From the IMG/VR virus record IMGVR_UViG_3300042881_003464, positions 32,001 to 96,000 of that record: DNA of 64,000 nucleotides; one strand, 5' to 3'. This DNA is from a virus. The notes below the pieces were generated by a model, which made no database searches, was not told the origin of the DNA, and saw only the letters and a program-made list of their open reading frames with translations. The number at the start of each line of letters is the position of its first letter. The stretch's first letter is position 1. The position numbers and the translations under genes are program-made. Positions 2,639-39,707 of this stretch are shown here, one piece after another.

Positions 2639-5600
2639 TTAGATAGCCTGTGCTGATGCTGTTTGTCCAGCACTGATTTCACCAGTGTTCTTGATTCGCA
2701 GCGGAATGTAGATAAATTCAACTGCTTTAACAGGTTCAATAGCAATATCTACATAGAGCTCGTTACGATCAATTGTGGCTGGTGTGTTGTTGCTGAGATC
2801 GCATACCACAAGATAATCATATACACCACGCTTGGCCACAAGGTCAATCATGAGACTTTCACAGCTATTCTTGATTTCGTCTCGTGTGATTTGATCATTT
2901 GGTTCAAACAAGAACTGTTTACCAATTTGCTCTAGTCTGCCACGGATAAATGCAACCAAACGGGCTACATTGATACGATTTAGAGCAGAGCTAATGCTGG
3001 TAGCTGTCTTATTACCAAAGTTAGTGATGCCCACACCTGGAATAAAGGTAATTGGGTTGATAGCGTTTTCATACAACACATCTCTCAGGCCTTGACGCAC
3101 ACCAAGTTGTACAAACTCACCAGTTTGAGCATTGATATAACCAATGCGATCTGCATTGTCTACTAGACCACGACGTGTACCAGCAGGTGCCATCCAGGGG
3201 AAAGCCACTTCGTCGTTACGAATAAATGTACGCAGCATCATGTGAGTAGCTGGCTGCACAATTGGGTTGCCGCTGAGATCAGTAGTCTGACAGCTGGGAT
3301 AGAACGTTGCCATGTATTGATTAGCAGTGTTCAATCCATCACCAGTAGGCAAGCCTTCACCGTTGTTGTCAGTTACCCAATCAGTGATACCAGTGCCTTC
3401 TGGACTTAGACGCAGAGGTGTGTCAACCAACACAAAACCAGTGTTGTTACGCTCGTTGTTTAAGGCCACCATGTTCACAGCAAGTTCTGGATACTGTGGA
3501 GTAGCAATCAGCTGATATACCAACTGTTCTTCACGAAGTTGTGTGTTTGAATCAATGCCTGCTTTCAATGCCTGTACGACCAAGGCACGCTGTGCTTGAC
3601 GTCCCATGTATGGGCTACCGTCGTTCTTAAGTCCGCTGGCACTAACCCATGCATTTCTTTCAGCTGGCAGAGTTACATCTGGATAGTCAGTTGGGTTGAA
3701 GTAATTGACTGCAAATCTCTTGACATTGAATCCCGAACGACGTGTGTTAAACAACAGCATGCCTGTGGGATATAGATCAGGATCAGGTGCATCAAGATCC
3801 AGATAATCCGAAGTCAACAGACTCACAATACTTGGAATAGCATCAGTGATTGGATTCACTGATCCATTTGTGCCCCAACGTGCATCTGCAAATAGAATAC
3901 CATTTTCTGTGGTTTGATCAGCGTTGCTGATCTTGACCCATTGATCTTCACCATCAACATTTTCCCAGCGGTAGAGCTGTGGATAGTTTTCTAGGTCGCT
4001 GGTATCAATCCAAAGATCACCATACACCAGTGGACTCTGAGCCACATCATTTTGTGTGGTTGGAGCTGTGGTGCTGAACTGTGGACCAGTTGCATTGGTC
4101 AAGCTTAGGTTAAAGCCTCGCACATCATTGGTGACGTTTTGATAACCTTGCCATCCGTTGTCACCATTGATCATGATATCTGCTTGATCAACAGCGGAAT
4201 AGTACCATAGACGTCCATTGGCTGGATCTTGATCAGGTGCGTTGTCGCTGGCTGTGTAGTCAAACTCAACCCAGTTGCTCAAAGTATATGAACCATCTGG
4301 GTTGGCTCTAGCATTGATTGACTGGTCAAAACCAGCAGTCAGTAGAGGTGTACCGCTGACATCTTCAACCACTATCACACCGCCTAGTGCATGTGTAAGA
4401 ACCATTTGACCATTGGCGTTTACCGAAGCCGACACCTTGGGCACGTTGGCTGCACTCACAGCAGTCACAAAAGCTGCTGGGGTAGATCCATTAATAACCA
4501 CTGTCACAGGGTTTGTTAATGTATCGCTGTTGGCAGTGCTGGCTTGAATTGTAAATGATGTGCCATTGATAAACACTGGATCAATTTCGCTACCTGTGGC
4601 ATTGGTTGGTCCTGTGGCCAGGCGTTTTAGAATTTCTAGTGTAAATGTTTCGTCTTGTTCAACATTGGTAACTGCATAGGTTGAGTTAGCAGGAATATTT
4701 TGTCCACCGCCTGCAGGATCAAGTGCTTTGTTAGCAGCTTGGTCGCTGGAATAGATTGGACAGCCTTGCTGAACAAATGCGCCCAACACGCTGTCATAGC
4801 GTTTGATCACAAGATTAGCACCAAGATTGCTTGCAGTTGTTTTGTTCCATACACTGCCAGTGGCCTTGGGCTCAGCATCAGTTTCACGCCAGCGAGGTAC
4901 CTGGAAGTTAGGACTCTGTTGTAGTGCAGGAGCATAATATGATCTTGGAGTAATTCCAAGTTCGCCCAGCGGATTGCCTGTTACATTGTACAATGTAACA
5001 ATACCACCATTGGCTGTTGAACCATCACTTGTGGCCTGACTATCTGCATAGATTGTCAAGCGTCCGTCAACTTCTGCGGCTGTAACACCAGTGATGCTAG
5101 CAGCATTGATAGCAGTTACCACGTCAGTGATTGTGTTGTTTGGTGCCACTGAAATATTGATTGGCACATCGTTTACTGTGAAAACGGTGTTTGGAGTCAG
5201 TGATACTGGAGCCAGGTTACCCTGTACAGTTGGCCAGCTCAGTTTCCATGGATCACTACCAACCAATACCCAGTCATTCACTGAGTTCTTGTAGTAAACA
5301 GGATTGTTCGCATTCAAGGCATTGATAGCATAGCTACCAATTGTGCCAATTGATTGAAGTGGCAGTGTGCTAGGTGCTGGCTCAAGCTGATCAGTGCTTG
5401 TGATCACAATCGGAGTGATTTCACTAAAGGTGCCTGTGGCCAGGTTCCATTGGAAGATGCCCCAGCGAGTGGTTGCTGTGTCAAACCAGAAAGTGCCATT
5501 GTCAGGATCGCCAGTGGGGCGTACCAGTGTAGCAGTGAGTTCTGCTAGGTCAACGTCAGCACGCTGAACATAAGCACGGTTACTGATACCCAGGCATGAA

Positions 5601-9619: not shown

Positions 9620-10996
9620 ATGCCCAGATTAAGCCTATACCGCCCAAATCGCACCCGCGACTATCAGTTTTTGGACCGAACCATTTCGGAACAATACACC
9701 GTGGGCGGACTAGATATCTACCTACACAAGTATCTAGGCCCCAAGGTTACGGGCGATAGTTCAACAGACACTCAGCACGATGCTACCATGCCAAACTACG
9801 CAGGGGAAAGCCCGCTGTTTATTCAAGATCTGCTGTTGTTGGAAAACCGCGACAGAGCCTATGATCCAGATGTGTATGTGATGCGAGGAGTCTATCGCGC
9901 TCAAGACATTGATTTTGATCTAACCCAGTTTGGTTTGTTTTTAAACAATGACACACTGTTTGTGACTTTTCATTACAATGACATGATTGACAGTTTGGGT
10001 CGCAAGATCATGAACGGTGACGTACTGGAAGTGCCAAATCTACGTGATTACCATCCACTGGATTCAAACATTCCACGAGCACTGCCCAAGTTCTACGTGG
10101 TACAGGATGCTGCTTTTGCCAGCGAAGGTTTCAGTCAAACTTGGTTGCCACACCTTTGGCGTGTAAAAGCCACACCCATGGTCAATGCTCAAGAGTATCA
10201 AGACATACTACAACAGCCATTTGAACCAGAAAACGTCTGGGATCCAGGTAATTTTTATCCAGCCGGCAGTATTGTGAACTATGACAATGTTTACTATGTG
10301 GCTCTTAAAAACACACCTGCGGACATAGACATCACAAATACTGAATACTGGGCTGAAAAGAGTCGTATCAACACACTGGCGGATAGTGCTTCAACTCGCA
10401 ACAAAGATCTTGAGATTAATGATGCTATCTTGGTACAGGCCGAAGAAGAAGTACCAAAGAGTGGTTACGATACAGTAAAATTCTACATTCTGCCTACTAA
10501 CCCTGATGGATCGCCTGCTGATCCTAGCACTTATACTGCTGACTACACACAGACTGACGCCAGTCGTACTGTGAGCAATGAAAATCTAACACCAAGAGCA
10601 GATGGTTATACATCAGGTTATCTCACTGGTGATGGTATCGCGCCCAATGGTTTGCCTGTTACGCCCGGAGTTCGTTTTCCTTTACAGGCTGAAGTTGGAC
10701 AGTATTGCCTACGTCTAGATTACTTCCCTAATAGATTGTTTAGATTCAACGGCAGTCGTTGGGTAAAGATCGAAGAGGTTGTACGCACCAACCTTACACC
10801 TGGTGCGGACAACAATACCTTGCGTTCAGGCTTTGTGAACAATACATACACTGTGAACAGCACTGATCTTGGTCCAATACCCAGTAGACAAAGTCTTAGT
10901 CAAGCCCTTAAACCTAGAGCTGATAATGGAGATCAAGGTGGTAATAAAACGCCTAAGCCATATCCGCCTACCAAGCCCGGACAACCATCAAGTTAA
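9620..10996 (+). CDS. gp14: Neck / head closure protein (gp14-like) with inserted carbohydrate-binding-like module
   Basis: LTQFGLF..ND..F, GDVLEVP; position between gp13-like and gp15-like genes; TAAATA at ~9596 and SD GAGGA. Confidence 0.65.
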   Translation: MPRLSLYRPNRTRDYQFLDRTISEQYTVGGLDIYLHKYLGPKVTGDSSTDTQHDATMPNYAGESPLFIQDLLLLENRDRAYDPDVYVMRGVYRAQDIDFDLTQFGLFLNNDTLFVTFHYNDMIDSLGRKIMNGDVLEVPNLRDYHPLDSNIPRALPKFYVVQDAAFASEGFSQTWLPHLWRVKATPMVNAQEYQDILQQPFEPENVWDPGNFYPAGSIVNYDNVYYVALKNTPADIDITNTEYWAEKSRINTLADSASTRNKDLEINDAILVQAEEEVPKSGYDTVKFYILPTNPDGSPADPSTYTADYTQTDASRTVSNENLTPRADGYTSGYLTGDGIAPNGLPVTPGVRFPLQAEVGQYCLRLDYFPNRLFRFNGSRWVKIEEVVRTNLTPGADNNTLRSGFVNNTYTVNSTDLGPIPSRQSLSQALKPRADNGDQGGNKTPKPYPPTKPGQPSS

Positions 10997-10999
10997 CCT

Positions 11000-12448
11000 A
11001 TGCAACAGTTCTTTTATGACGGTCAAATACGCAGATTCTTGTTGCAGTTCACAAGAATTTTTTCAAACTTCCAAGTGGAGTTTGGACAGAATCTAGCAGG
11101 AGTATCACCACCAGATACCTTGTATCGTGTGCCTGTGCGTTATGGTGATTCTAGTCGTAATGCGCAGACCATTATTCAGCAGAACTCTGCAAACAGCATG
11201 CCCAGCACGCCAATCATGACGTTTTACATTTCTAGTCTTGATTATGATCGTGGCAGAATCCAAGAACCAACCTTTGTTGACAAAATCAATGTAAGACAGC
11301 GTTACTACGACACAGACAGTGACACCTATGAGGTCACCCAAGGCAATGCGTTTACGATTGAACGTCTAATGCCTGTGCCCTACAAACTTACTATTACTCT
11401 GGATATCTGGACCAGTAATACCAACCAAAAAATGCAGATACTTGAACAAATACTGACCTTGTTCAATCCTGCTCTAGAAATACAAAGTACAGACAACTAT
11501 ATTGATTGGACCAGTTTGAGTGTGGTTGAACTTGAGTCAGTGTCCTGGAGTTCGCGTACCATTCCCATGGGCACTGAAGATCCTATTGATATCTGTAGTC
11601 TTAGATTTGGTTTGCCAATTTGGATTTCAAGCCCAGCAAAGATCAAAAAACTTGGTGTTGTGGAACGTGTTATTGCCAGCATCTACGATTCACAAGGCGA
11701 TGCTTCCAATGCAGTTATTGACAGCGATCTACTGTTAGGCACTAGAGTCAAGGTCACACCATATAGCTATCAGGTACTGCTGTTGAATGGACAGTTGCAG
11801 ATACTACAACCTCAAGATGTGATATCACAACCTATTACCAGTTTGACCCCACCCGACTCACCAGTGGACGATGAACTAGTATGGCCCAGCGTGATCAACT
11901 TGTATGGCGTACTGCGTCCGGGTATCAGTTATGTAACCTTGGACAATCCTTGGGATCCAGACAGTTACATTGTTGGCACTGTGGCACTTAATCCAGCTGA
12001 TGATAGATTTTTGCTGTTTAACATTGATCCAGATACAGTGCCACAAAACACACTGCCACCAATTGATGCAGTGATCAATCCTTTGAAAAGTGCGCCTGGA
12101 GACGGACTAGATTCCAGCATGACTGGACAACGTTACTTGTTTACCGAGGCCACTGGCAGTGCGGAGAACTACACCACCCGCACGGATCCCTTTGGTGATC
12201 CATATAGTTTTGATGCTAACCCAACTGCCTGGAGAGGTATAAACGGTCAGCCTTTGATTGCCAATGCCAATGATATCGTTGAATTTGATGGTCAACGCTG
12301 GCGTGTGGTATTTGACAGCCAAAGCCTGGCGGATGTACAATACGTGACAAATATCACTACTGGAATACAGTACAAATGGACAGGCGAAGACTGGGTAAAA
12401 AGCTATGATGGATTGTATCCGGGGGGATCGTGGAATCTAATTCTCTAA
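11000..12448 (+). CDS. gp15: Tail sheath stabiliser / terminator (gp15-like)
   Basis: FFYD.QIRR...QF..IFSN, VPVRYG, PVPY.L..LDIW, QILEQILTLFNP. Confidence 0.85.
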   Translation: MQQFFYDGQIRRFLLQFTRIFSNFQVEFGQNLAGVSPPDTLYRVPVRYGDSSRNAQTIIQQNSANSMPSTPIMTFYISSLDYDRGRIQEPTFVDKINVRQRYYDTDSDTYEVTQGNAFTIERLMPVPYKLTITLDIWTSNTNQKMQILEQILTLFNPALEIQSTDNYIDWTSLSVVELESVSWSSRTIPMGTEDPIDICSLRFGLPIWISSPAKIKKLGVVERVIASIYDSQGDASNAVIDSDLLLGTRVKVTPYSYQVLLLNGQLQILQPQDVISQPITSLTPPDSPVDDELVWPSVINLYGVLRPGISYVTLDNPWDPDSYIVGTVALNPADDRFLLFNIDPDTVPQNTLPPIDAVINPLKSAPGDGLDSSMTGQRYLFTEATGSAENYTTRTDPFGDPYSFDANPTAWRGINGQPLIANANDIVEFDGQRWRVVFDSQSLADVQYVTNITTGIQYKWTGEDWVKSYDGLYPGGSWNLIL

Positions 12449-30534: not shown

Positions 30535-32439
30535 TTAGCCGGTAGAATATCGGCGTATGATTTGCCTTGGATAAGCTAGACCTGCACTAGGGCGTAGCCA
30601 CCAGCGTTTTTGAGGCCAAACGTTGCCATTTATGGGTCTATCGTTGTAGTAGCCCATGAACAGATTCTGAGCTCCTCGCAGGCCTCTTTCACTCACAGGA
30701 CCCGGTGGCAGTGGGGTTCCAAAGTCTGGAATCACACCTTCTTGCGCATAGTATCGAGCCCAACGATAAGCGTCCATTTGGCTCATGTTGGGGTATATCT
30801 CGCACAGAGAAGCAATAATACCCATGACTTGTGGACTAGCCATGCTGGTACCAGTGAGTTTTGACATGAAAAAACTAGCATTTCTTGGGTCAGGTACTCC
30901 GCTGGTATATGGTGCCATGATACCAGTTCCTGGTGCCCAGACTGTGATTCCACGGCCTGCACTGGATGTTTGTTGTACCTGCTGATTGACAGTTTGATCA
31001 ATGTTACCTGTAACTATTACACCTTTGAAGCTGTCTGTACCTGGAGTACCTGTTTCAGTTGAAGCTGGTACTGGAAATTGATTATGATACCTTGCAGCGT
31101 AAAGCACAACAGTGCCAAAAGTAGCATAGGCCACATTTAAATTGTTGTTAAAATCAGGATCTCCGCTGAGTACACCTGCTTCGCCCCACTGGTTACCTGC
31201 TGCTGCTCCCCAGATTATACCCTCGTTCATGCCATCAATAATAGCAGCTGAAGCTGCTGCATCTTGCAGAGTATAGAAAAACAGAATAACACCATATACA
31301 TTGGCATATTCAGCATAGACCTGAATACCGCCATTATAGAAGTTGGTTAAAGTCCAGTTCCCGTTGTAAGTGGCCTGCAACGACGTTTGGCCCGCAGGGG
31401 GACTGGCAGGATGATTCTGTATCGTGCCCCGGTAATCAATTCGATTACACATCAAGATGTTGTTGCTTCTTGCGAATGTGTTGCCAAACAAACCAAAACT
31501 CATGTTTACCACAGTGGGATTTTTGATACCTGTGACAGGATTACGAGTTTTAACGCTGTTGTGCCAATAGCGAATATAGTTTACCAGCTGTGTTAGGTTT
31601 GGAGTGCTAGTGCCATTGGTTTGTTCACCATAGGGCGAAATATTGTAAATGGTACTATCTCTGGCCCATCCACAGGTGTTACCTGCCATGATACCACCAA
31701 CGTTATAACCATGTCCGTTGTTGCCTGCAGAACCTGCACCATAGTTATACACACCTGCTGGTTGTCCTGTCACAGCTGGGTTGTATGCCCACCAGTTAAT
31801 CTGATTGATTCGTGATCCGCCCGACCCATCGGCATTTCTGGCATATTCTGGATGATTTCTATCCATGTTGCCATCAAATACCACTACGTCAACATTTTTT
31901 CCTGTGCTGGTCAATGTGATAGTGGCACTTTTATTTGGCTCAGATCCGTCACTGCCCCAGTTTGGCAACGTGGTCCTGTTCCAACAGCGCAGCAGACCCC
32001 AGTTTTTCATGTCGCTGGTTGTGGTACCACTTTTATCCCAAAACGCACTGAACTGTGATCCCAATGGTCTTGGTTTGATTCCCAAGAACTGTGGTTCAAC
32101 TTCAACGGCTATCACTCTAGGATCTTGCTCAAGACGTGCTGCTTCAATTGGAGTGATAAGATAGGTTGTACTCCGGCACAGTGGCATTCGATCAATGCAT
32201 TCTACCACTCGATCTGGTACATAGCCTCGACTACCTGGACTTTCCATTTCATCATAGAAATTGTCCTGTACGTCATAGCTGGCCAAGGTAATCACGTGAG
32301 GATATTCTGTAGTAGCATCCATCTGCAAGGGTTCAACATACCCCAAGGTTGCTTTGGCATGTTCCATGAGAGCTTCAGGGCTAGGATTCTCTCCTAGTTG
32401 TTTGACTAACTCTTCTTCGGATGCGGTTCTTTCAATCAT
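30535..32439 (-). CDS. Subtilisin-like (S8) serine protease
   Basis: Catalytic triad VVVFDG, HG.NVGG, GTSMASP; oxyanion AAGN; N-terminal prodomain-like region. Confidence 0.9.
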   Translation of the reverse strand: MIERTASEEELVKQLGENPSPEALMEHAKATLGYVEPLQMDATTEYPHVITLASYDVQDNFYDEMESPGSRGYVPDRVVECIDRMPLCRSTTYLITPIEAARLEQDPRVIAVEVEPQFLGIKPRPLGSQFSAFWDKSGTTTSDMKNWGLLRCWNRTTLPNWGSDGSEPNKSATITLTSTGKNVDVVVFDGNMDRNHPEYARNADGSGGSRINQINWWAYNPAVTGQPAGVYNYGAGSAGNNGHGYNVGGIMAGNTCGWARDSTIYNISPYGEQTNGTSTPNLTQLVNYIRYWHNSVKTRNPVTGIKNPTVVNMSFGLFGNTFARSNNILMCNRIDYRGTIQNHPASPPAGQTSLQATYNGNWTLTNFYNGGIQVYAEYANVYGVILFFYTLQDAAASAAIIDGMNEGIIWGAAAGNQWGEAGVLSGDPDFNNNLNVAYATFGTVVLYAARYHNQFPVPASTETGTPGTDSFKGVIVTGNIDQTVNQQVQQTSSAGRGITVWAPGTGIMAPYTSGVPDPRNASFFMSKLTGTSMASPQVMGIIASLCEIYPNMSQMDAYRWARYYAQEGVIPDFGTPLPPGPVSERGLRGAQNLFMGYYNDRPINGNVWPQKRWWLRPSAGLAYPRQIIRRYSTG

Positions 32440-34855: not shown

Positions 34856-35443
34856 CTAACAATCCTTTTGCTTATTTATACGAGCCAGAAACAGCGACAT
34901 TTCAAGGTGCTCAAGATTGCTCAAACGGTCTAATTCAGCGTGTTTCATTGTGGTTTCCCCGTATACCCTGGTCCAGCGCACAGTGGGAAAATCTGATATC
35001 ACTGTGGTTATCTGCTTGATCCAGTTGCCCGTGAATGTGGGAGGAGTTCCACGTGCTTTGTAGAATTCGGTACCTGCATAAACGTTGTTGAATTTGTTAT
35101 CCGTTGTTGGTCCAAGATCATACCCCAGCAAATAGATCTGCGTGTGTCCGTCAATAGCTGCTAGTGCAGCGGCCACTGGTCCTGAGCTGTTTCCGTAGTA
35201 TTTTTTGGGGATCTGCCTTGCTCCAGAATTTGGATAGCATCTACGAGTGTAGAATGTTTTACGCTGACTGTAGCCAGAATCTTGAATTCGTCCACTGATC
35301 GGAGCGTCAGTGGCCACCAGCACGTCTGGTTCGTAATCTTTGTAGAGTGCATTGCAGCCATAAATTGAGCCGTAGTGGTGTAACCAGGCAAGATCAAGTC
35401 CTTGTCTACTAACACCATTTGCCAGTGCAAAAGCTATAGTCAT
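34856..35443 (-). CDS. Hypothetical protein, glycosyltransferase/DUF115-like Rossmann motifs
   Basis: ANG.SR, YGCNALY, PDVLVATD, SSG..A, IYLLGYD. Confidence 0.55.
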   Translation of the reverse strand: MTIAFALANGVSRQGLDLAWLHHYGSIYGCNALYKDYEPDVLVATDAPISGRIQDSGYSQRKTFYTRRCYPNSGARQIPKKYYGNSSGPVAAALAAIDGHTQIYLLGYDLGPTTDNKFNNVYAGTEFYKARGTPPTFTGNWIKQITTVISDFPTVRWTRVYGETTMKHAELDRLSNLEHLEMSLFLARINKQKDC

Positions 35444-35497: not shown

Positions 35498-36244
35498 TTA
35501 GCTAGTCCACTTCTCAACTTGCCCTGGTATCACTGTGGTATTTGCAGTACCACTCTTGATCACAGTGCCTTCGTCAGTGAAGAAGTTTGATACATAACGC
35601 ACATCATTTACCACGCTGGAGTAACCGTAGTCGTTACCTCCAGTCCAATCCAACAGCCACTTGTTGGTTAGCTTGCTGATGTAGGTAATTGTTGAATCTC
35701 CTACTGAGAAGCCAATGGCCATGCTGCCGCCAGGAGGAGTTGCATCATTGTCTAAAACGCACACACCGACTTCTTGACAGGTGCCTGTGGTACCAGCGCC
35801 TGCGGCTGCTGTAACTAAGAAAATAGTGCCTACTGCGGCACCCACTGGTGCACCCATAGCTACCCAATTGGTGTCCCCAAGGCTAGCAATGCGCACACTG
35901 ACACCCACCACTGCGTTGGCAGGGTCAATAGCTGTGTTCGTGGCCACTAGAAATTTGTGAGCACCTTTTTGACGCAGGATAACACCATCATCTACACCTG
36001 TGTAGCTGTTGGCGATGTTTACAATACACTTGACCACAGGATTAGTAGCTGATGTGGCAGTGGTACGAAGTCCGCCAACCACGCCAAGATAATCGTTTGC
36101 ACTTAGAGTTGTTGGGTTGACATTATACTCTGGATCTGTCAGTGAGCCAAAGTTTGGAAAACCAACATCAATGCCTACTGCTGCACCAGGTGCACCAATA
36201 CCAGAATTAGTAGAATATTTTTGTATTTTGAGAGGACGCCCCAT
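35498..36244 (-). CDS. Probable abundant virion structural protein
   Basis: Own late promoter (TAAATA 36327-36332), strong SD TAAGGAG, own terminator; close to capsid gene. Confidence 0.6.
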   Translation of the reverse strand: MGRPLKIQKYSTNSGIGAPGAAVGIDVGFPNFGSLTDPEYNVNPTTLSANDYLGVVGGLRTTATSATNPVVKCIVNIANSYTGVDDGVILRQKGAHKFLVATNTAIDPANAVVGVSVRIASLGDTNWVAMGAPVGAAVGTIFLVTAAAGAGTTGTCQEVGVCVLDNDATPPGGSMAIGFSVGDSTITYISKLTNKWLLDWTGGNDYGYSSVVNDVRYVSNFFTDEGTVIKSGTANTTVIPGQVEKWTS

Positions 36245-36349
36245 TTGTTTTCTCCTTAAAGAAGTCCGATGTGGGTTCTAGCCACTACGCGGTGGTTGCC
36301 GCATAAAACGCAGAGTGCGTTAATAGTATTTAGTGGTTTACCAAATTAA

Positions 36350-36378
36350 TTGACCTACTAGTTTAATTTTGGCATAAT
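36350..36378 (+). promoter_or_regulatory. Sigma70-type promoter of tRNA cassette
   Basis: TTGACC-N17-CATAAT with TG extended -10, 8 nt before the tRNA. Confidence 0.75.
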
Positions 36379-36386
36379 TACGTTAT

Positions 36387-36460
36387 GCGCTGTGAGCCGG
36401 TGGACGGCAAGGAGATTCTAAACCTCCAATGAATGGGTTCGATTCCCATACGGCGCACCA
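36387..36460 (+). tRNA. tRNA with CUA anticodon (putative amber suppressor); alternative reading is a degenerate tRNA-Arg(UCU)
   Basis: GCGCTGT/ACGGCGC acceptor plus ACCA; D-stem GCCG/CGGC; anticodon arm GGAGA-TT[CTA]AA-CCTCC; T-arm ATGGG-TTCGATT-CCCAT. Confidence 0.85.
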
Positions 36461-36579
36461 GAATCATCGGCGGACCCGTAACCATATTCCGCCTCCGCTG
36501 ACGCGAAAACGGGATGGGCTGCGCTCACGGGGTTTGGTAGTTTCCTGACACAAAAATAACTACCCATTAGGAAACTGTT

Positions 36580-36765
36580 ATGCGCTACATTTTAATGGTT
36601 TTTGCTTTGATAGCAGCAGGTTGTTCTAACAAGTACGATGAGTGCATAGAACAACAAAAAGCAGAGTATAGAGAACGTAATCCTAAAGCAAGTTACGGAC
36701 AAGTTCAAAGCAGGCAACATGATTTTGAACTAATGTGCAGTAAATTTAAAACAAAAGGAAAATAA
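36580..36765 (+). CDS. Small lipoprotein
   Basis: MRYILMVFALIAAG|C signal peptide II lipobox; SD AGGA. Confidence 0.75.
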   Translation: MRYILMVFALIAAGCSNKYDECIEQQKAEYRERNPKASYGQVQSRQHDFELMCSKFKTKGK

Positions 36766-36766
36766 A

Positions 36767-37333
36767 ATGTCATAGATTGAATACGCATGCAAGGATCTAG
36801 TGTTTCACTTCAACAAGAAACATCTAGAAGATAGTACCATCCCCATGTGGGTCGTAAAAACACACGGTGAAACTTTTTACGTAGACCACGTCACTGCTTC
36901 CATCCCATGGAGTACCAAAGAGACTCCGGACAATTACCATACCAAGGGCAGTATCAAATTCAAAGAGTGTTTGTTGGCCATCAACGATGCCAACGAAGCT
37001 GAAATCTCAGTCTTGACCTTGATTGACAAAATTAGATTGCGAAATCAAAAGCTTGGTATCACAAGAATAATTTTTACATACGGTGGAGCATTTCACAAAG
37101 CATTACAGCATAATGAATACAAACACTCGCCATTCAAAAACATCAGCGGTGGTTGTGGCACTAGCTTTGTGGTTTGCGATTTGTTAAAAAAGGAAGAAGC
37201 AACCTTTGCTGCGCTGAAATATAAAGATGGATTTAGAATCATGCAGGCCAATGAACGTTACTATCAGGCCTACGATGATCCAAGTCAAAAATGGATAGAC
37301 GAAGACGATTATCAAGACGATGACGAAGAATAA
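36767..37333 (+). CDS. Hypothetical protein; ATG start has in-frame TAG at codon 3 (alternative GTG start at 36800)
   Basis: AAAGGAAAATAAA-ATG TCA TAG ATT GAA TAC GCA TGC AAG GAT CTA GTG TTT..., in frame with the 36800-37333 ORF. Confidence 0.7.
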
Positions 37334-37343
37334 TCTGTCCAAG

Positions 37344-37366
37344 AAAAACCCCGCCGAAGCGGGGTT
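37344..37366 (-). terminator. Rho-independent terminator after major capsid gene
   Basis: AACCCCGC-TTCG-GCGGGGTT plus T-run; cUUCGg tetraloop. Confidence 0.85.
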
Positions 37367-37390
37367 GATTCCCATCCCTGAGAGTTTTGA

Positions 37391-38602
37391 TTAGCTGAAC
37401 GACAGGTTCGATACAGCGATCTCACCCAGATAGTCAGCTGCGTTACCGAAGCTGCTGGCTGTGTTGGTAAGTTCGATGTAACCATAACGAGTCATGAAGC
37501 TTACCACTGGTTCAAAAGTGGTAGGATCAAGAACAACGCCAGAGCTCATCAGCGGAATATAAGGGCAATAGAACGCGGCTGCATCAGCTTCGCTCGAACC
37601 CTTGTAACCAACTAGAACAGCTTGGCTATCGCTAGCATAGCTGTCAACGAACACACGCATTGCGCCGTTCAATGTACCAACAAACTTGGTGTTGGTAGGT
37701 GCTTCAAATGTGCCTTCAGTTGTACGTGCAAATGCTGAAGTGGTTGCGCTTTGCAGCACAGTCAGCGATGCAGGTGACACAACTGCCCAGTTACCAGCGC
37801 CACGACGTGTACGCTGAGCAATCAGGTTAGCAACACGGTTGATCAGAACTGCCAGTGCAGCATGTTCGTCACCAACGAATGTAGCAGTACCAGATACAGT
37901 TGCCTGGTTGTATGTGAACTCTGTAGCTGCCAGAGTACGCAGGCTCAGCAGGATCTCTTGATCAATTTCAGCAGTGATCTCTTGAGCCAGTGCGGCCATG
38001 ATTTCTGCTTCAACGTCAATACCGTGCATTGCTTGTGCATCTTGTGCTGCTTCAAAGGTCCAACGAGCTTGCAGCTTACGTGTTTTTGCTTCAACAGCCT
38101 GCTTCAGGATCTGAACGCTGATGTTACGACCACCAGAACCTTCAAGAACCGAAGTGTCAGCACCAGTGTAGCGAGTCTGACTTGCGCCAGGAACGCCAGC
38201 AGTCACAGTGCTTGCTGAAGAGTAAGCTGTTGCAATCTTGAACGGGCTCAGTGCTTCTTCACCAGCGATGGTTGAAGTTGCAGCAGCTGAAGTATCGTTC
38301 ATGGTGCTTGCATAGCGAACACGCAGAGTGTGGATTTGACCCACAGGGCCGGTCATTGGCTGAACACCTACCAGTTCGTTAGCGATCACAGTTGGCATCA
38401 CACGACGAATCACTGGCAGAATGACACGGTTTAGAGTTGCCACGTTACCAGCAGCGGTGCTGCCAGCAGTTGCATTCTCTTTCAGATACTTGCGAGTGTT
38501 TTCAAGAATAACACCCATGGTGCTGCGACGTGAACCTTTAAGGCCTTCCATAAGGGCTTCTTTGGTTTCGTCCCAGCGGCTTTCGAGTAATTGCTCTGAC
38601 AT
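37391..38602 (-). CDS. gp23: Major capsid protein (gp23-like)
   Basis: RRVMP..IA.ELVGVQPMTGPVGQI, RKLQARWT.E.AQD..A.HG.D.E.E, YCPYIPL, MTRYG; start moved to ATG 38602 behind AAGGAG. Confidence 0.97.
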   Translation of the reverse strand: MSEQLLESRWDETKEALMEGLKGSRRSTMGVILENTRKYLKENATAGSTAAGNVATLNRVILPVIRRVMPTVIANELVGVQPMTGPVGQIHTLRVRYASTMNDTSAAATSTIAGEEALSPFKIATAYSSASTVTAGVPGASQTRYTGADTSVLEGSGGRNISVQILKQAVEAKTRKLQARWTFEAAQDAQAMHGIDVEAEIMAALAQEITAEIDQEILLSLRTLAATEFTYNQATVSGTATFVGDEHAALAVLINRVANLIAQRTRRGAGNWAVVSPASLTVLQSATTSAFARTTEGTFEAPTNTKFVGTLNGAMRVFVDSYASDSQAVLVGYKGSSEADAAAFYCPYIPLMSSGVVLDPTTFEPVVSFMTRYGYIELTNTASSFGNAADYLGEIAVSNLSFS

Positions 38603-38618
38603 TATAGTCTCCTTTTGC

Positions 38619-39707
38619 TTATAATCCTGCCAATCTCTTGATGTCAATCACATTGCTGCGATCTTCATCTTGCTGAGGCGAGGTAGTTTTATCCCCAGTC
38701 ACTTCGCTAATCGATTCTGTAATCACTTTCTGGGCTTTCACAGATCGGTTCTCGAGCACCGCTGGTAGATATTTTTCAAAAGCGTTTTTCAGACGAGCAG
38801 TCTGTACGCTTTCAAGAAGATTGCGCATGATGTCCTGCTTCTCTTTGTTAAGAGGAGCCAACAGGTCGGCCATAATATTGGCACGTTCGTTGTTTTCACG
38901 AATCATACGAATTTCTCGTTCTTTACTTTCCACAACCACACGAGCTTGTTCGGCCACTTGTACGGCCTTGGACAACTTGGCATTTTTCTCAGCAATCACC
39001 GCATTGAGCTTGCGCACTTCTGCATTTTCATTGAGATGTGTAGCACCAAATTCAGCTGCATAGGCTTCAAAGATGCGACGGCCAAAATTGTTTTCTCGTG
39101 CAACTTGGATGTCTTCACGTAGCTGGTTGAGTTCAGCCTTGAGATGCTTGGATACCGCTTGACTCATCTTCTGCGCACTTTCTTTAACAAAGCGTGATTT
39201 CAATGACTCAAGTTTTACACGGGCATCGCGCACCAGACGCACTTGGGTTTCTACAACCTTTTGTTTGTCCTGAGCGAATTCCATGATTTCTTCTGCAAGT
39301 GCTCGCACCACAAAGGTTTCTAATTTTTCTAGTCCTTGGTTGTGAGCCTTGCGATCTCTACGCACTTCTGCGATTTCTTCAGCCAATTTCTTTACCATGA
39401 AGTCGTTGAACTTAGTGGCACTTTCTTTCATCTTGGCTTGGAACTTCACGCGATCTTCAGCAAGTTGACGCTTTTCAGCAGCAACGCCTTCGATCTCTGC
39501 GTTTAGACCTTCGGTTACCATGCGATCTAGGGCTTCAACCATCACGCTCTTGTCGTGCTCATAGCGTTGTGCAAACTCCTCGCGAAGTTCTGCACGTACC
39601 TGTTCACGAGCTTCATTTAGCTTGGTTTCCCAGGCTTCATTGATCTCGCGACTAACGTCTTCGTTAATCAGGCCGCTATCTAGTAATGGTTTGATGGCAT
39701 CTAACAT
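38619..39707 (-). CDS. gp22: Prohead core scaffold protein (gp22-like)
   Basis: Coiled-coil, Glu/Lys-rich; lies between protease and capsid. Confidence 0.85.
   Translation of the reverse strand: MLDAIKPLLDSGLINEDVSREINEAWETKLNEAREQVRAELREEFAQRYEHDKSVMVEALDRMVTEGLNAEIEGVAAEKRQLAEDRVKFQAKMKESATKFNDFMVKKLAEEIAEVRRDRKAHNQGLEKLETFVVRALAEEIMEFAQDKQKVVETQVRLVRDARVKLESLKSRFVKESAQKMSQAVSKHLKAELNQLREDIQVARENNFGRRIFEAYAAEFGATHLNENAEVRKLNAVIAEKNAKLSKAVQVAEQARVVVESKEREIRMIRENNERANIMADLLAPLNKEKQDIMRNLLESVQTARLKNAFEKYLPAVLENRSVKAQKVITESISEVTGDKTTSPQQDEDRSNVIDIKRLAGL

Follow-up and report, generated by a model that had tools for sequence, protein, structure and literature searches.

An early in-frame amber codon and a linked tRNA(CUA) as a probable single-gene translational gate in freshwater jumbo phages

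How is a protein made from a gene whose third codon is a stop, in a phage that otherwise uses the standard genetic code? The question is raised by a locus in a 64-kb stretch of viral DNA (64,000 nucleotides (nt), positions 32,001 to 96,000 of the IMG/VR record IMGVR_UViG_3300042881_003464; hereafter the window), where a Shine-Dalgarno (SD) sequence and an ATG are followed after a single codon by an in-frame TAG, and where a tRNA gene with the anticodon CUA lies upstream on the same strand. The elements concerned are:

36387-36460, plus strand: tRNA with the anticodon CUA at 36418-36420 (ARAGORN; Rfam tRNA model 35.2 bits, cut-off 29)
36755-36778, plus strand: the gate as read from the sequence, comprising SD AAGGA 36755-36759, seven nucleotides, ATG 36767-36769, TCA, TAG 36773-36775 and ATT 36776-36778
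36767-37333, plus strand: the amber-gated gene, 188 codons including the TAG, in frame with GTG 36800 and with the stop TAA 37331-37333

We propose that the two genes form a two-part translational gate, in which the phage's own amber-suppressor tRNA(CUA) would control one gene through its early UAG, and on the comparative evidence given here we consider this reading likely. Under code 11 the open reading frame (ORF) of the gated gene starts at GTG 36800. The original prediction, made from the letters of this stretch, had placed the anticodon, the ATG and the TAG where we find them, the last two in frame with that ORF; ARAGORN, the Rfam score and the sequence itself agree.

The first evidence is the conservation of the stop codon. 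The amber-gated protein has 1427 homologs in a large protein collection, and at the DNA level we pooled three fetches, amounting to 239 phage loci and 159 distinct genes. TAG stands at the homologous position in 150 of the 159 (in one fetch set, 96 of 100) and is never replaced by TAA or TGA; it lies 7-11 codons before an invariant FHFN motif, with an SD and an ATG 1-9 codons before it. Among the 80 loci fetched with the closest homolog, together with the window, TAG directly precedes I-E-Y/F-A-C in 81/81, and across 87 aligned distinct long-form genes it is invariant at all three positions (entropy 0/0/0). Nine of the 159 distinct genes have no in-gene TAG; in four of them the N-terminal domain of the protein (N-domain) instead forms the C-terminal end of a longer, helical protein, and no tRNA(CUA) lies nearby. 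As judged by these alignments, the pattern is far beyond chance. That the TAG arose in sequencing or assembly, or that it marks a decaying gene hit by a nonsense mutation, has a negligible probability: beyond the bare presence of a stop codon nothing speaks for it, whereas the same codon recurs in 150 distinct genes from independent metagenomes and a cultured phage genome, in a gene under purifying selection. The worry attached to the original prediction, that the codon was an error or peculiar to this genome, is thereby removed.

Public records disagree on this gene. ENA and Logan write Q for TAG, a TAG=Q code having been chosen per contig, and many database entries begin M-S/A-Q-I-E-Y; the contig behind the best entry yields that protein only with TAG=Q. 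Because callers write Q for TAG, alignments of database proteins show a false 'conserved Gln', and we discarded a conserved glutamine at the TAG position as a gene-caller artefact. Standard gene callers thus truncate the gene (JGI records begin it at the internal Met27, giving 162 residues, or at Val12), miss it (GenBank leaves it unannotated in the Rhizobium phage RHph_I1_18) or silently read Q.

Is the segment between the TAG and GTG 36800 coding? We measured the entropy at codon positions 1/2/3 in the 87 distinct long-form genes and obtained 0.38/0.36/1.08 for codons +1 to +9 after the TAG, 0.21/0.11/0.91 for codons +10 to +19, and 1.39/1.55/1.60 upstream of the ATG. These values indicate that the codons right after the TAG evolve as coding sequence, under purifying selection. 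At the Val +9 codon (GTG 36800 in the window) all four bases occur in third position, with an entropy of 1.6 bits, and the GTG is therefore no conserved start; the possibility raised with the original prediction, that homologs begin at this GTG/Val, is not borne out. In short forms and in other members the codon after the TAG is Asn, Gln, Lys, Thr or Val, and since these codons are not start-like, a general non-AUG start after the TAG is ruled out in the short forms. The AlphaFold model places its first long beta strand at residues 4-15, the stretch that separates the TAG from FHFN. The coding periodicity that begins directly after the TAG, the unconserved GTG and the strand in the model together imply that the conserved protein needs in-frame passage of the UAG, and the N-terminal extension is conserved as predicted.

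The same data bear on a reading that dispenses with the tRNA, in which ATG-NNN-TAG is a mini-ORF followed by re-initiation or by a non-AUG start (AUU 36776 or GUG 36800). It draws some strength from the codon after the TAG, which is Ile (ATT, ATC or ATA) in 81/87 long-form genes, and from the window itself, where a GTG with AAGGA follows nine codons on. ATT is, however, simply the commonest Ile codon here (45%), and neither the codons that follow the TAG in short forms and other members nor the four third bases of the Val codon fit a fixed start. In addition, leaders are 1-9 codons long, so that the codon after the TAG stands at varying distances from the SD, and the same-strand tRNA(CUA) found with 120/150 gated genes and the leader-TAG attenuators described below would be left unexplained. 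We regard this mini-ORF reading as quite improbable.

The second evidence is the tRNA. We searched flanks of 3-4 kb with ARAGORN and with a covariance model built from 73 distinct tRNA(CUA) sequences, and found a tRNA(CUA) beside 120 of the 150 distinct gated genes, on the same strand in 120/120, so that the expected co-occurrence of the TAG with a neighbouring CUA tRNA holds well outside the window. In long forms the tRNA is usually upstream (median 320 nt, minimum 24 nt), and in short forms it is downstream in 6/13, about 300-380 nt past the TAG; over all relatives the distance from the gated gene ranges from 24 nt to ~8 kb in either direction. Many gated loci sit inside tRNA arrays. In the 64-kb window the tRNA at 36387-36460 is the only one detected by ARAGORN.

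Compensatory changes occur at 15/17 stem pairs tested across the 73 sequences of the lineage, and pairing holds in 93.4% of cells against <=46% once the partners are slid, which argues that the tRNA(CUA) genes are real and under selection. The window tRNA has U33, A37, G1-C72, C2-G71, G3-C70, A73, an encoded CCA and an A31-C39 mismatch, and the lineage as a whole has G1-C72, C2-G71, G/A3-C/U70, mostly A73, an encoded CCA and the loop YU-CUA-AA. In 51/73 sequences bases 31 and 39 do not form a standard pair (A-C in the window, mostly C-A elsewhere), leaving an effective 4-bp anticodon stem; such stems have been linked to stop-codon reading in bacteria (PMC13092985). The lineage is no recent copy of the phage's own tRNAs, of which the closest is Arg-UCU (71% identity), Gln-UUG reaching 61%; identity to the tRNA-Gln(CUG) of RHph_I1_18 is 54%. 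The tRNA(CUA) of the Rhizobium phage belongs to the same lineage and has the same acceptor stem. By the precedent of Escherichia coli, a CUA tRNA that lacks other strong determinants is charged with Gln or Lys, and an A73 would suit Leu as well.

Two other identities fit this tRNA poorly. ARAGORN labels it tRNA-Pyl, a label that follows from the anticodon only. A tRNA-Pyl body has a 3-nt variable loop, a 6-bp anticodon stem, a D loop without G18G19 and an atypical T loop; in the family the D loop has an invariant GG, the T loop reads GTTCRAWTC, the anticodon stem is <=5 bp and the variable loop 4-6 nt. An initiator-like tRNA starting at the UAG was set aside as well, as G1-C72 is paired and the anticodon stem has no triple G-C.

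Could the gene instead be one of many with an in-frame TAG in a phage recoded, fully or in part, to TAG=Gln ('code 15')? The IMG/VR record from which the window comes (G000, 171,839 bp) is rated 49% complete, and since its relatives reach 330-364 kb we take the source to be a T4-like jumbo phage. Under code 11, G000 holds 173 non-overlapping greedy ORFs covering 94% of the sequence (stops TAA 91, TGA 54 and TAG 28), and a complete relative (G003, 363,943 bp) holds 448 ORFs at 95% coverage, with 38 TAG stops. The claim that only four called genes end in TAG was too low, the count being 28/173 in G000 and about 6-7 ORFs within the window; the accompanying claim that the genome is not globally recoded stands, in view of the 94% coverage and with no other in-frame TAG in G000 or G003. 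The phage-encoded tRNA(CUA), of which G000 and G003 have one each, and the choice of a TAG=Q code by public callers for short contigs carrying the gene are what a code-15 reading can point to. The code 11 coverage of 94-95% and the use of TAG as a stop at 8.5-16% contradict it, as does the lack of any TAG with a two-sided coding signal beyond adjacent genes, the candidate junctions being stop-start pairs or an opposite-strand gene. Recoding of this kind is very improbable, and the source is a large freshwater phage with an otherwise standard code.

In G000 the screen found no TAG with coding signal on both sides save at two junctions, at window 34856 and at G000 124135. The former is a TAG-ATG stop-start junction, and the latter has a 21-codon gap before an ATG, with no Pfam match on either side; a third candidate, at G003 65803, lies on the antisense strand of a real gene. 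All three were rejected as second in-frame TAGs. At the first (34856-34858, minus strand), the TAG of a 195-residue ORF is followed directly by the in-frame ATG of a 456-residue fibre-like ORF (…TGT TAG ATG TCA…). The layout SD-ATG-(<=12 codons)-stop-gene occurs in G000 and in G003 at the amber-gated gene only, and the same layout with TAA or TGA was not found in G000.

Based on these observations, the gate would work as follows. The tRNA(CUA) would be expressed from a conserved early-type promoter and charged by a host synthetase, and would compete with release factor 1 (RF1). A ribosome that starts at the ATG would release a dipeptide at the UAG; only where the phage tRNA decodes this codon would translation go on through the conserved N-terminal strand to the end of the protein. 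Ribosomes terminate poorly when the nascent peptide is very short, and suppression is helped by a purine directly 3' of the UAG; here the nascent dipeptide and the A that follows the UAG may give the tRNA an advantage over RF1. Suppression is probably partial, because 8.5-16% of ORFs end in TAG. With the TAG kept in ~94% of distinct members, the comparison indicates that the trait under selection is dependence on UAG readthrough; the most likely purpose, at a lower level of support, would be to make the yield of the protein follow suppressor-tRNA activity. The 'sensor of tRNA integrity' put forward in the original prediction would be one possible purpose of such a tie.

The strongest argument that amber dependence itself is selected is that it is kept by two mechanisms, the in-gene TAG and a TAG in a leader. 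Among the in-gene-TAG-less members of the 159 and TAG-less homologs from other collections, seven (L113, L364, L090, L386, L389, L391 and L393) have a leader consisting of Met, 1-5 codons and TAG, whose frame stays open across a strong hairpin and U-run and ends at or near the gene ATG. In L113, L364 and L090 the tRNA(CUA) is 130-155 nt upstream, the leader lies between tRNA and gene, and it reads Met-Thr-TAG or Met-Met-Leu-Lys-Glu-His-TAG; the frame ends in an ATGA overlap with the gene start in L113 and L364, and at a TAA ~23 nt before the ATG in L090. The leaders of L386, L389, L391 and L393 read Met-Asn-Lys-Leu-TAG, Met-Thr-Tyr-TAG or Met-Asn-TAG, that of L386 being in frame with the gene and that of L393 ending in an ATGA overlap. 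All seven regions fold as a hairpin plus U-run, 5/7 with z values of -2.9 to -5.6 versus shuffles. These leaders look like an attenuator that senses amber readthrough: a ribosome released at the leader UAG would let the terminator form, and one that reads through would melt the hairpin and couple to the gene start. In leader-peptide attenuation of the trp and his type, the progress of a ribosome over a hairpin decides transcription readthrough. The seven TAG-less homologs, not the window gene, share with it a short leader ORF with a regulatory codon before an intrinsic terminator; the difference is that here the sensed codon would be a stop read by a suppressor tRNA, whereas there a run of sense codons senses charged tRNA.

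The leader forms also bear on a further alternative, namely that readthrough is real and the gate has no regulatory purpose, the TAG being a frozen dependency (an addiction) that links the gene to a tRNA with another main job, such as extending TAG-ended host or phage proteins or serving as a decoy for host defences. The tRNA does persist beside TAG-less homologs (L090, L113, L364, L095 and L387), no second TAG-containing gene was found in G000 or G003, and the 16% of ORFs with a TAG stop would be extended. Nevertheless, a single-base mutation would turn TAG into a sense codon in eight cases out of nine, and still it persists in ~94% of genes at 35-97% protein identity, and the reappearance of a lost in-gene TAG in a leader over a terminator, in seven independent-looking cases, is hard to explain without selection for suppression-dependent expression. 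We consider a purposeless dependency unlikely and favour the two-part gate.

What does the gated protein do? It has a beta-rich N-domain (residues 4-82, with the motif FHFNKKHLED), a ferredoxin-like C-domain (97-174) and an acidic tail, and its AlphaFold2 (AF2) model has a mean predicted local distance difference test (pLDDT) score of 86.5, or 94.5 for the N-domain alone. The protein has no Pfam match at E<=1 and no PHROG family; Foldseek with the whole model and with the N-domain returned nothing from the PDB at E<=0.001, BFVD only uncharacterised phage proteins, and the ESM Atlas, searched by sequence, no usable match. In a wide VIA-align search the C-domain gave generic ferredoxin-like matches (ACT, RRM and EF-G domains, Z 5-6) and the N-domain a best Z of 3.9 to OB-fold-like proteins, too weak to use. 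The N-domain, which we call 'FHFN', is new and essentially phage-only, occurring in seven contigs of metagenome-assembled genomes (MAGs) among 185,579 species genomes. It can stand alone (~85 residues, with an amber gate here too), pair with the C-domain as in the window protein, or be joined to other parts.

One cluster representative (P0182) is a fusion of PTH2 (PF01981) with FHFN (32 bits, cut-off 23). In L095, a PTH2-like gene (3625-3999) starts Met-Lys-TAG, matches PF01981 over its whole length below the cut-off (E 1.2e-3, 19.5 bits) and is coupled (TAA-A-ATG) to a TAG-less family member, with a tRNA(CUA) 1.9 kb upstream. PF01981 had no match in G000 or five relatives (G001-G005), phmmer of P0182 against PDB sequences found none, and locus searches with P0137 and the L113 protein gave no further relatives. 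Other conserved neighbours are unrelated to translation: a Zn-ribbon protein, AhpC/AhpD-like proteins and gp23. The protein probably acts on tRNA or translation, an assignment we hold less firmly than the gate: the gene keeps its place by the tRNA where the TAG is missing, it often lies within tRNA arrays, and its N-domain is found fused or coupled to PTH2-like domains. More tentatively, we suggest a suppression homeostat, a prfB-like feedback loop and the most interesting of the readings, in which the FHFN protein would act on the suppressor tRNA, on peptidyl-tRNA or on RF1-dependent termination, and its own synthesis would be under feedback control by UAG readthrough, through either the in-ORF UAG or the leader attenuator.

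Several points weigh against this overall interpretation: (i) for 30/150 gated genes there is no tRNA(CUA) in the examined flank, three of these records having one 3.7-8 kb off when the whole record is considered; (ii) TAG is an ordinary stop for 28/173 ORFs (16%) in G000 and for 38/448 in G003, and a strong suppressor would extend TAG-terminated proteins, a cost; (iii) an active amber suppressor would, at 34856, fuse the 195-residue and 456-residue products; (iv) the screens for in-frame TAGs are insensitive to stops in short or weakly coding ORFs; (v) the link to tRNA function comes from context and from weak PTH2 matches, one above and one below the cut-off, because no family or fold match is recognisable; and (vi) transcription, processing and charging of the tRNA, and the full-length protein, are deduced from sequence. 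The central claim of the original prediction, that the full 188-residue protein depends on the phage tRNA reading the UAG, nevertheless gains support from the comparison, as the TAG, the tRNA and post-TAG coding are all conserved; co-transcription, charging and readthrough are what we infer from it.

The remaining features of the cassette in the window are:

36350-36378, plus strand: sigma70-type promoter TTGACC-17-CATAAT with an extended -10 TG (consensus scan, 10/12 matches; putative function)
36469-36565, plus strand: conserved structured RNA element with a hairpin, a pseudoknot, an invariant core and a 3' hairpin, near-invariant in 6 relatives
36580-36765, plus strand: 61-residue lipoprotein-like ORF with a signal peptide ending LIAAGC (ORF list)
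37347-37366, no strand assigned: GC-rich hairpin between the cassette and the convergent capsid gene (terminator scan: T-run on the minus strand only)

The cassette is a plus-strand island with minus-strand structural genes on either side, including a gp23-like capsid gene at 37391-38647, as first described, and the hairpin at 37347-37366 may mark its end. Blastn of the cassette against GenBank phages gave no match. The promoter noticed originally is recovered by the consensus scan; its -10 ends 8 nt before the 5' end of the tRNA, and in six close relatives TTGA and the ATAATTAC block are invariant and the intervening spacer is variable. The structured spacer and the lipoprotein gene that the prediction listed with the cassette are both present in the window, but neither belongs to the conserved module. 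The stop of the lipoprotein-like ORF is 1 nt from the ATG of the gated gene; the ORF has no match in Pfam or PHROGs and is restricted to the closest relatives, and it appears to be an optional passenger.

The GC-rich element 3' of the tRNA has a hairpin GGCGGA/UCCGCC (5/6 pairs compensatory) and a loop CCYGU that covaries with a downstream ACRGG as a pseudoknot. Its core of ~40 nt is invariant, and the 3' hairpin, with the loop UUUCCUGACACAAAAAU, covaries as well. The element is widespread, with 37-38 distinct copies in other phage contigs (at least 37); what precedes it there is a tRNA (Gly, Asn or CUA) or a protein gene, and the genes that follow are diverse. HDV-like theta ribozymes have been described directly 3' of suppressor tRNAs, with HDV-like models and a nested double-pseudoknot topology (PMC10879173). 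Inspected by eye, the element has a third stem that encloses the 3' strand of the pseudoknot, and a search of 36000-37600 gave it no Rfam 15 family match at E<=1; with no Rfam match and a topology that by eye seems not to fit, a hammerhead or hepatitis delta virus (HDV) reading looks doubtful. The element is possibly a mobile RNA, or a processing or ribozyme-like element.

A freshwater-2 RNA motif (RF02980) matches at full length at 36242-36322 on the minus strand (77.8 bits, cut-off 49.9), and its end is the AAGGAG-ATG of the minus-strand gene 35498-36244. Outside the window, at 156922-168815 on its minus strand, G000 carries an array of 28 further tRNAs and a permuted transfer-messenger RNA (tmRNA; tag ANAANDEVFALAA), a long way from the single tRNA(CUA); an array member called 'tRNA-Leu(UAA)' is only 77 nt and has no long variable arm.

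Does the pair exist in phages that can be grown? Tblastn against GenBank phages placed the N-domain in Rhizobium phage RHph_I1_18 (MN988519.1), under no annotated feature. There (locus L173:2477-2814), an 82-codon ORF encodes the N-domain only, TAG is codon 6, and a tRNA annotated as 'tRNA-Pyl(cta)' lies 11 nt after the ORF stop; in MN988519.1 the ORF is at ~11000-11250 and the tRNA at 10911-10988. Agrobacterium phage Atu_ph07 has the N-domain at the C-terminal end of an annotated coding sequence, with no tRNA in the 2.5-kb flanks, and in Sinorhizobium phage Phosso the match lies under an annotated hypothetical protein. The cultured pair Rhizobium phaseoli and RHph_I1_18 makes the gate directly testable.

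How does the proposed gate compare with known systems? TAG is recoded to Gln in crAss-like and Lak phages. Recoded phages with suppressor tRNAs read TAG as Gln under 'code 15' (bioRxiv 10.1101/2021.08.26.457843, PMC9523058), and readthrough has been proposed as a timing control for certain genes, with a 'code change module' upstream of lysis genes (PMC9523058). What is shared with them is a phage-borne tRNA(CUA) that overrides UAG in a standard-code host. Theirs are in-frame TAGs in many, typically structural and lysis, genes; here a single gene per genome has one, between codons 3 and 10, 8.5-16% of ORFs still end normally in TAG, and the gated gene and its tRNA are a linked pair. Hosts and habitat also differ, the carriers here being freshwater T4-like jumbo phages and a Rhizobium phage, and some members move the TAG into a leader-peptide attenuator.

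A closer likeness in logic is prfB, which encodes release factor 2 (RF2) and is autoregulated through an early in-frame UGA that is escaped by a +1 frameshift and read by its own product. In both, a conserved early in-frame stop would tie protein yield to competition at the stop codon; prfB escapes by +1 frameshift, whereas the gated gene would escape by a dedicated tRNA. The lambda bar minigenes consist of a strong SD, ATG, one codon and a stop, and their inefficient termination loads the peptidyl-tRNA hydrolase Pth. The gate resembles them in the order SD-ATG-one codon-stop and in that the FHFN N-domain occurs fused to PTH2-like domains, and differs in that bar is not in frame with a downstream gene and has no suppressor tRNA; we treat the resemblance as a lead only. 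In full-text literature we found genome-wide gut-phage recoding, code change modules and theta ribozymes, and no single-gene amber gate or amber-sensing attenuator in standard-code phages; a natural stop-codon switch of this kind looks to be absent from the searchable literature.

If the interpretation is correct, these phages carry a private, single-gene override of the genetic code, a tRNA-operated switch in a genome that otherwise keeps the standard code, and the in-ORF amber gate and the amber-sensing attenuator would be a new natural form of gene control. Should the homeostat also prove true, the leader form would be the first natural attenuator keyed to stop-codon suppression. The pair would offer synthetic biology a ready-made orthogonal suppressor and gate, and for the phages themselves it is a candidate early step toward stop-codon recoding.

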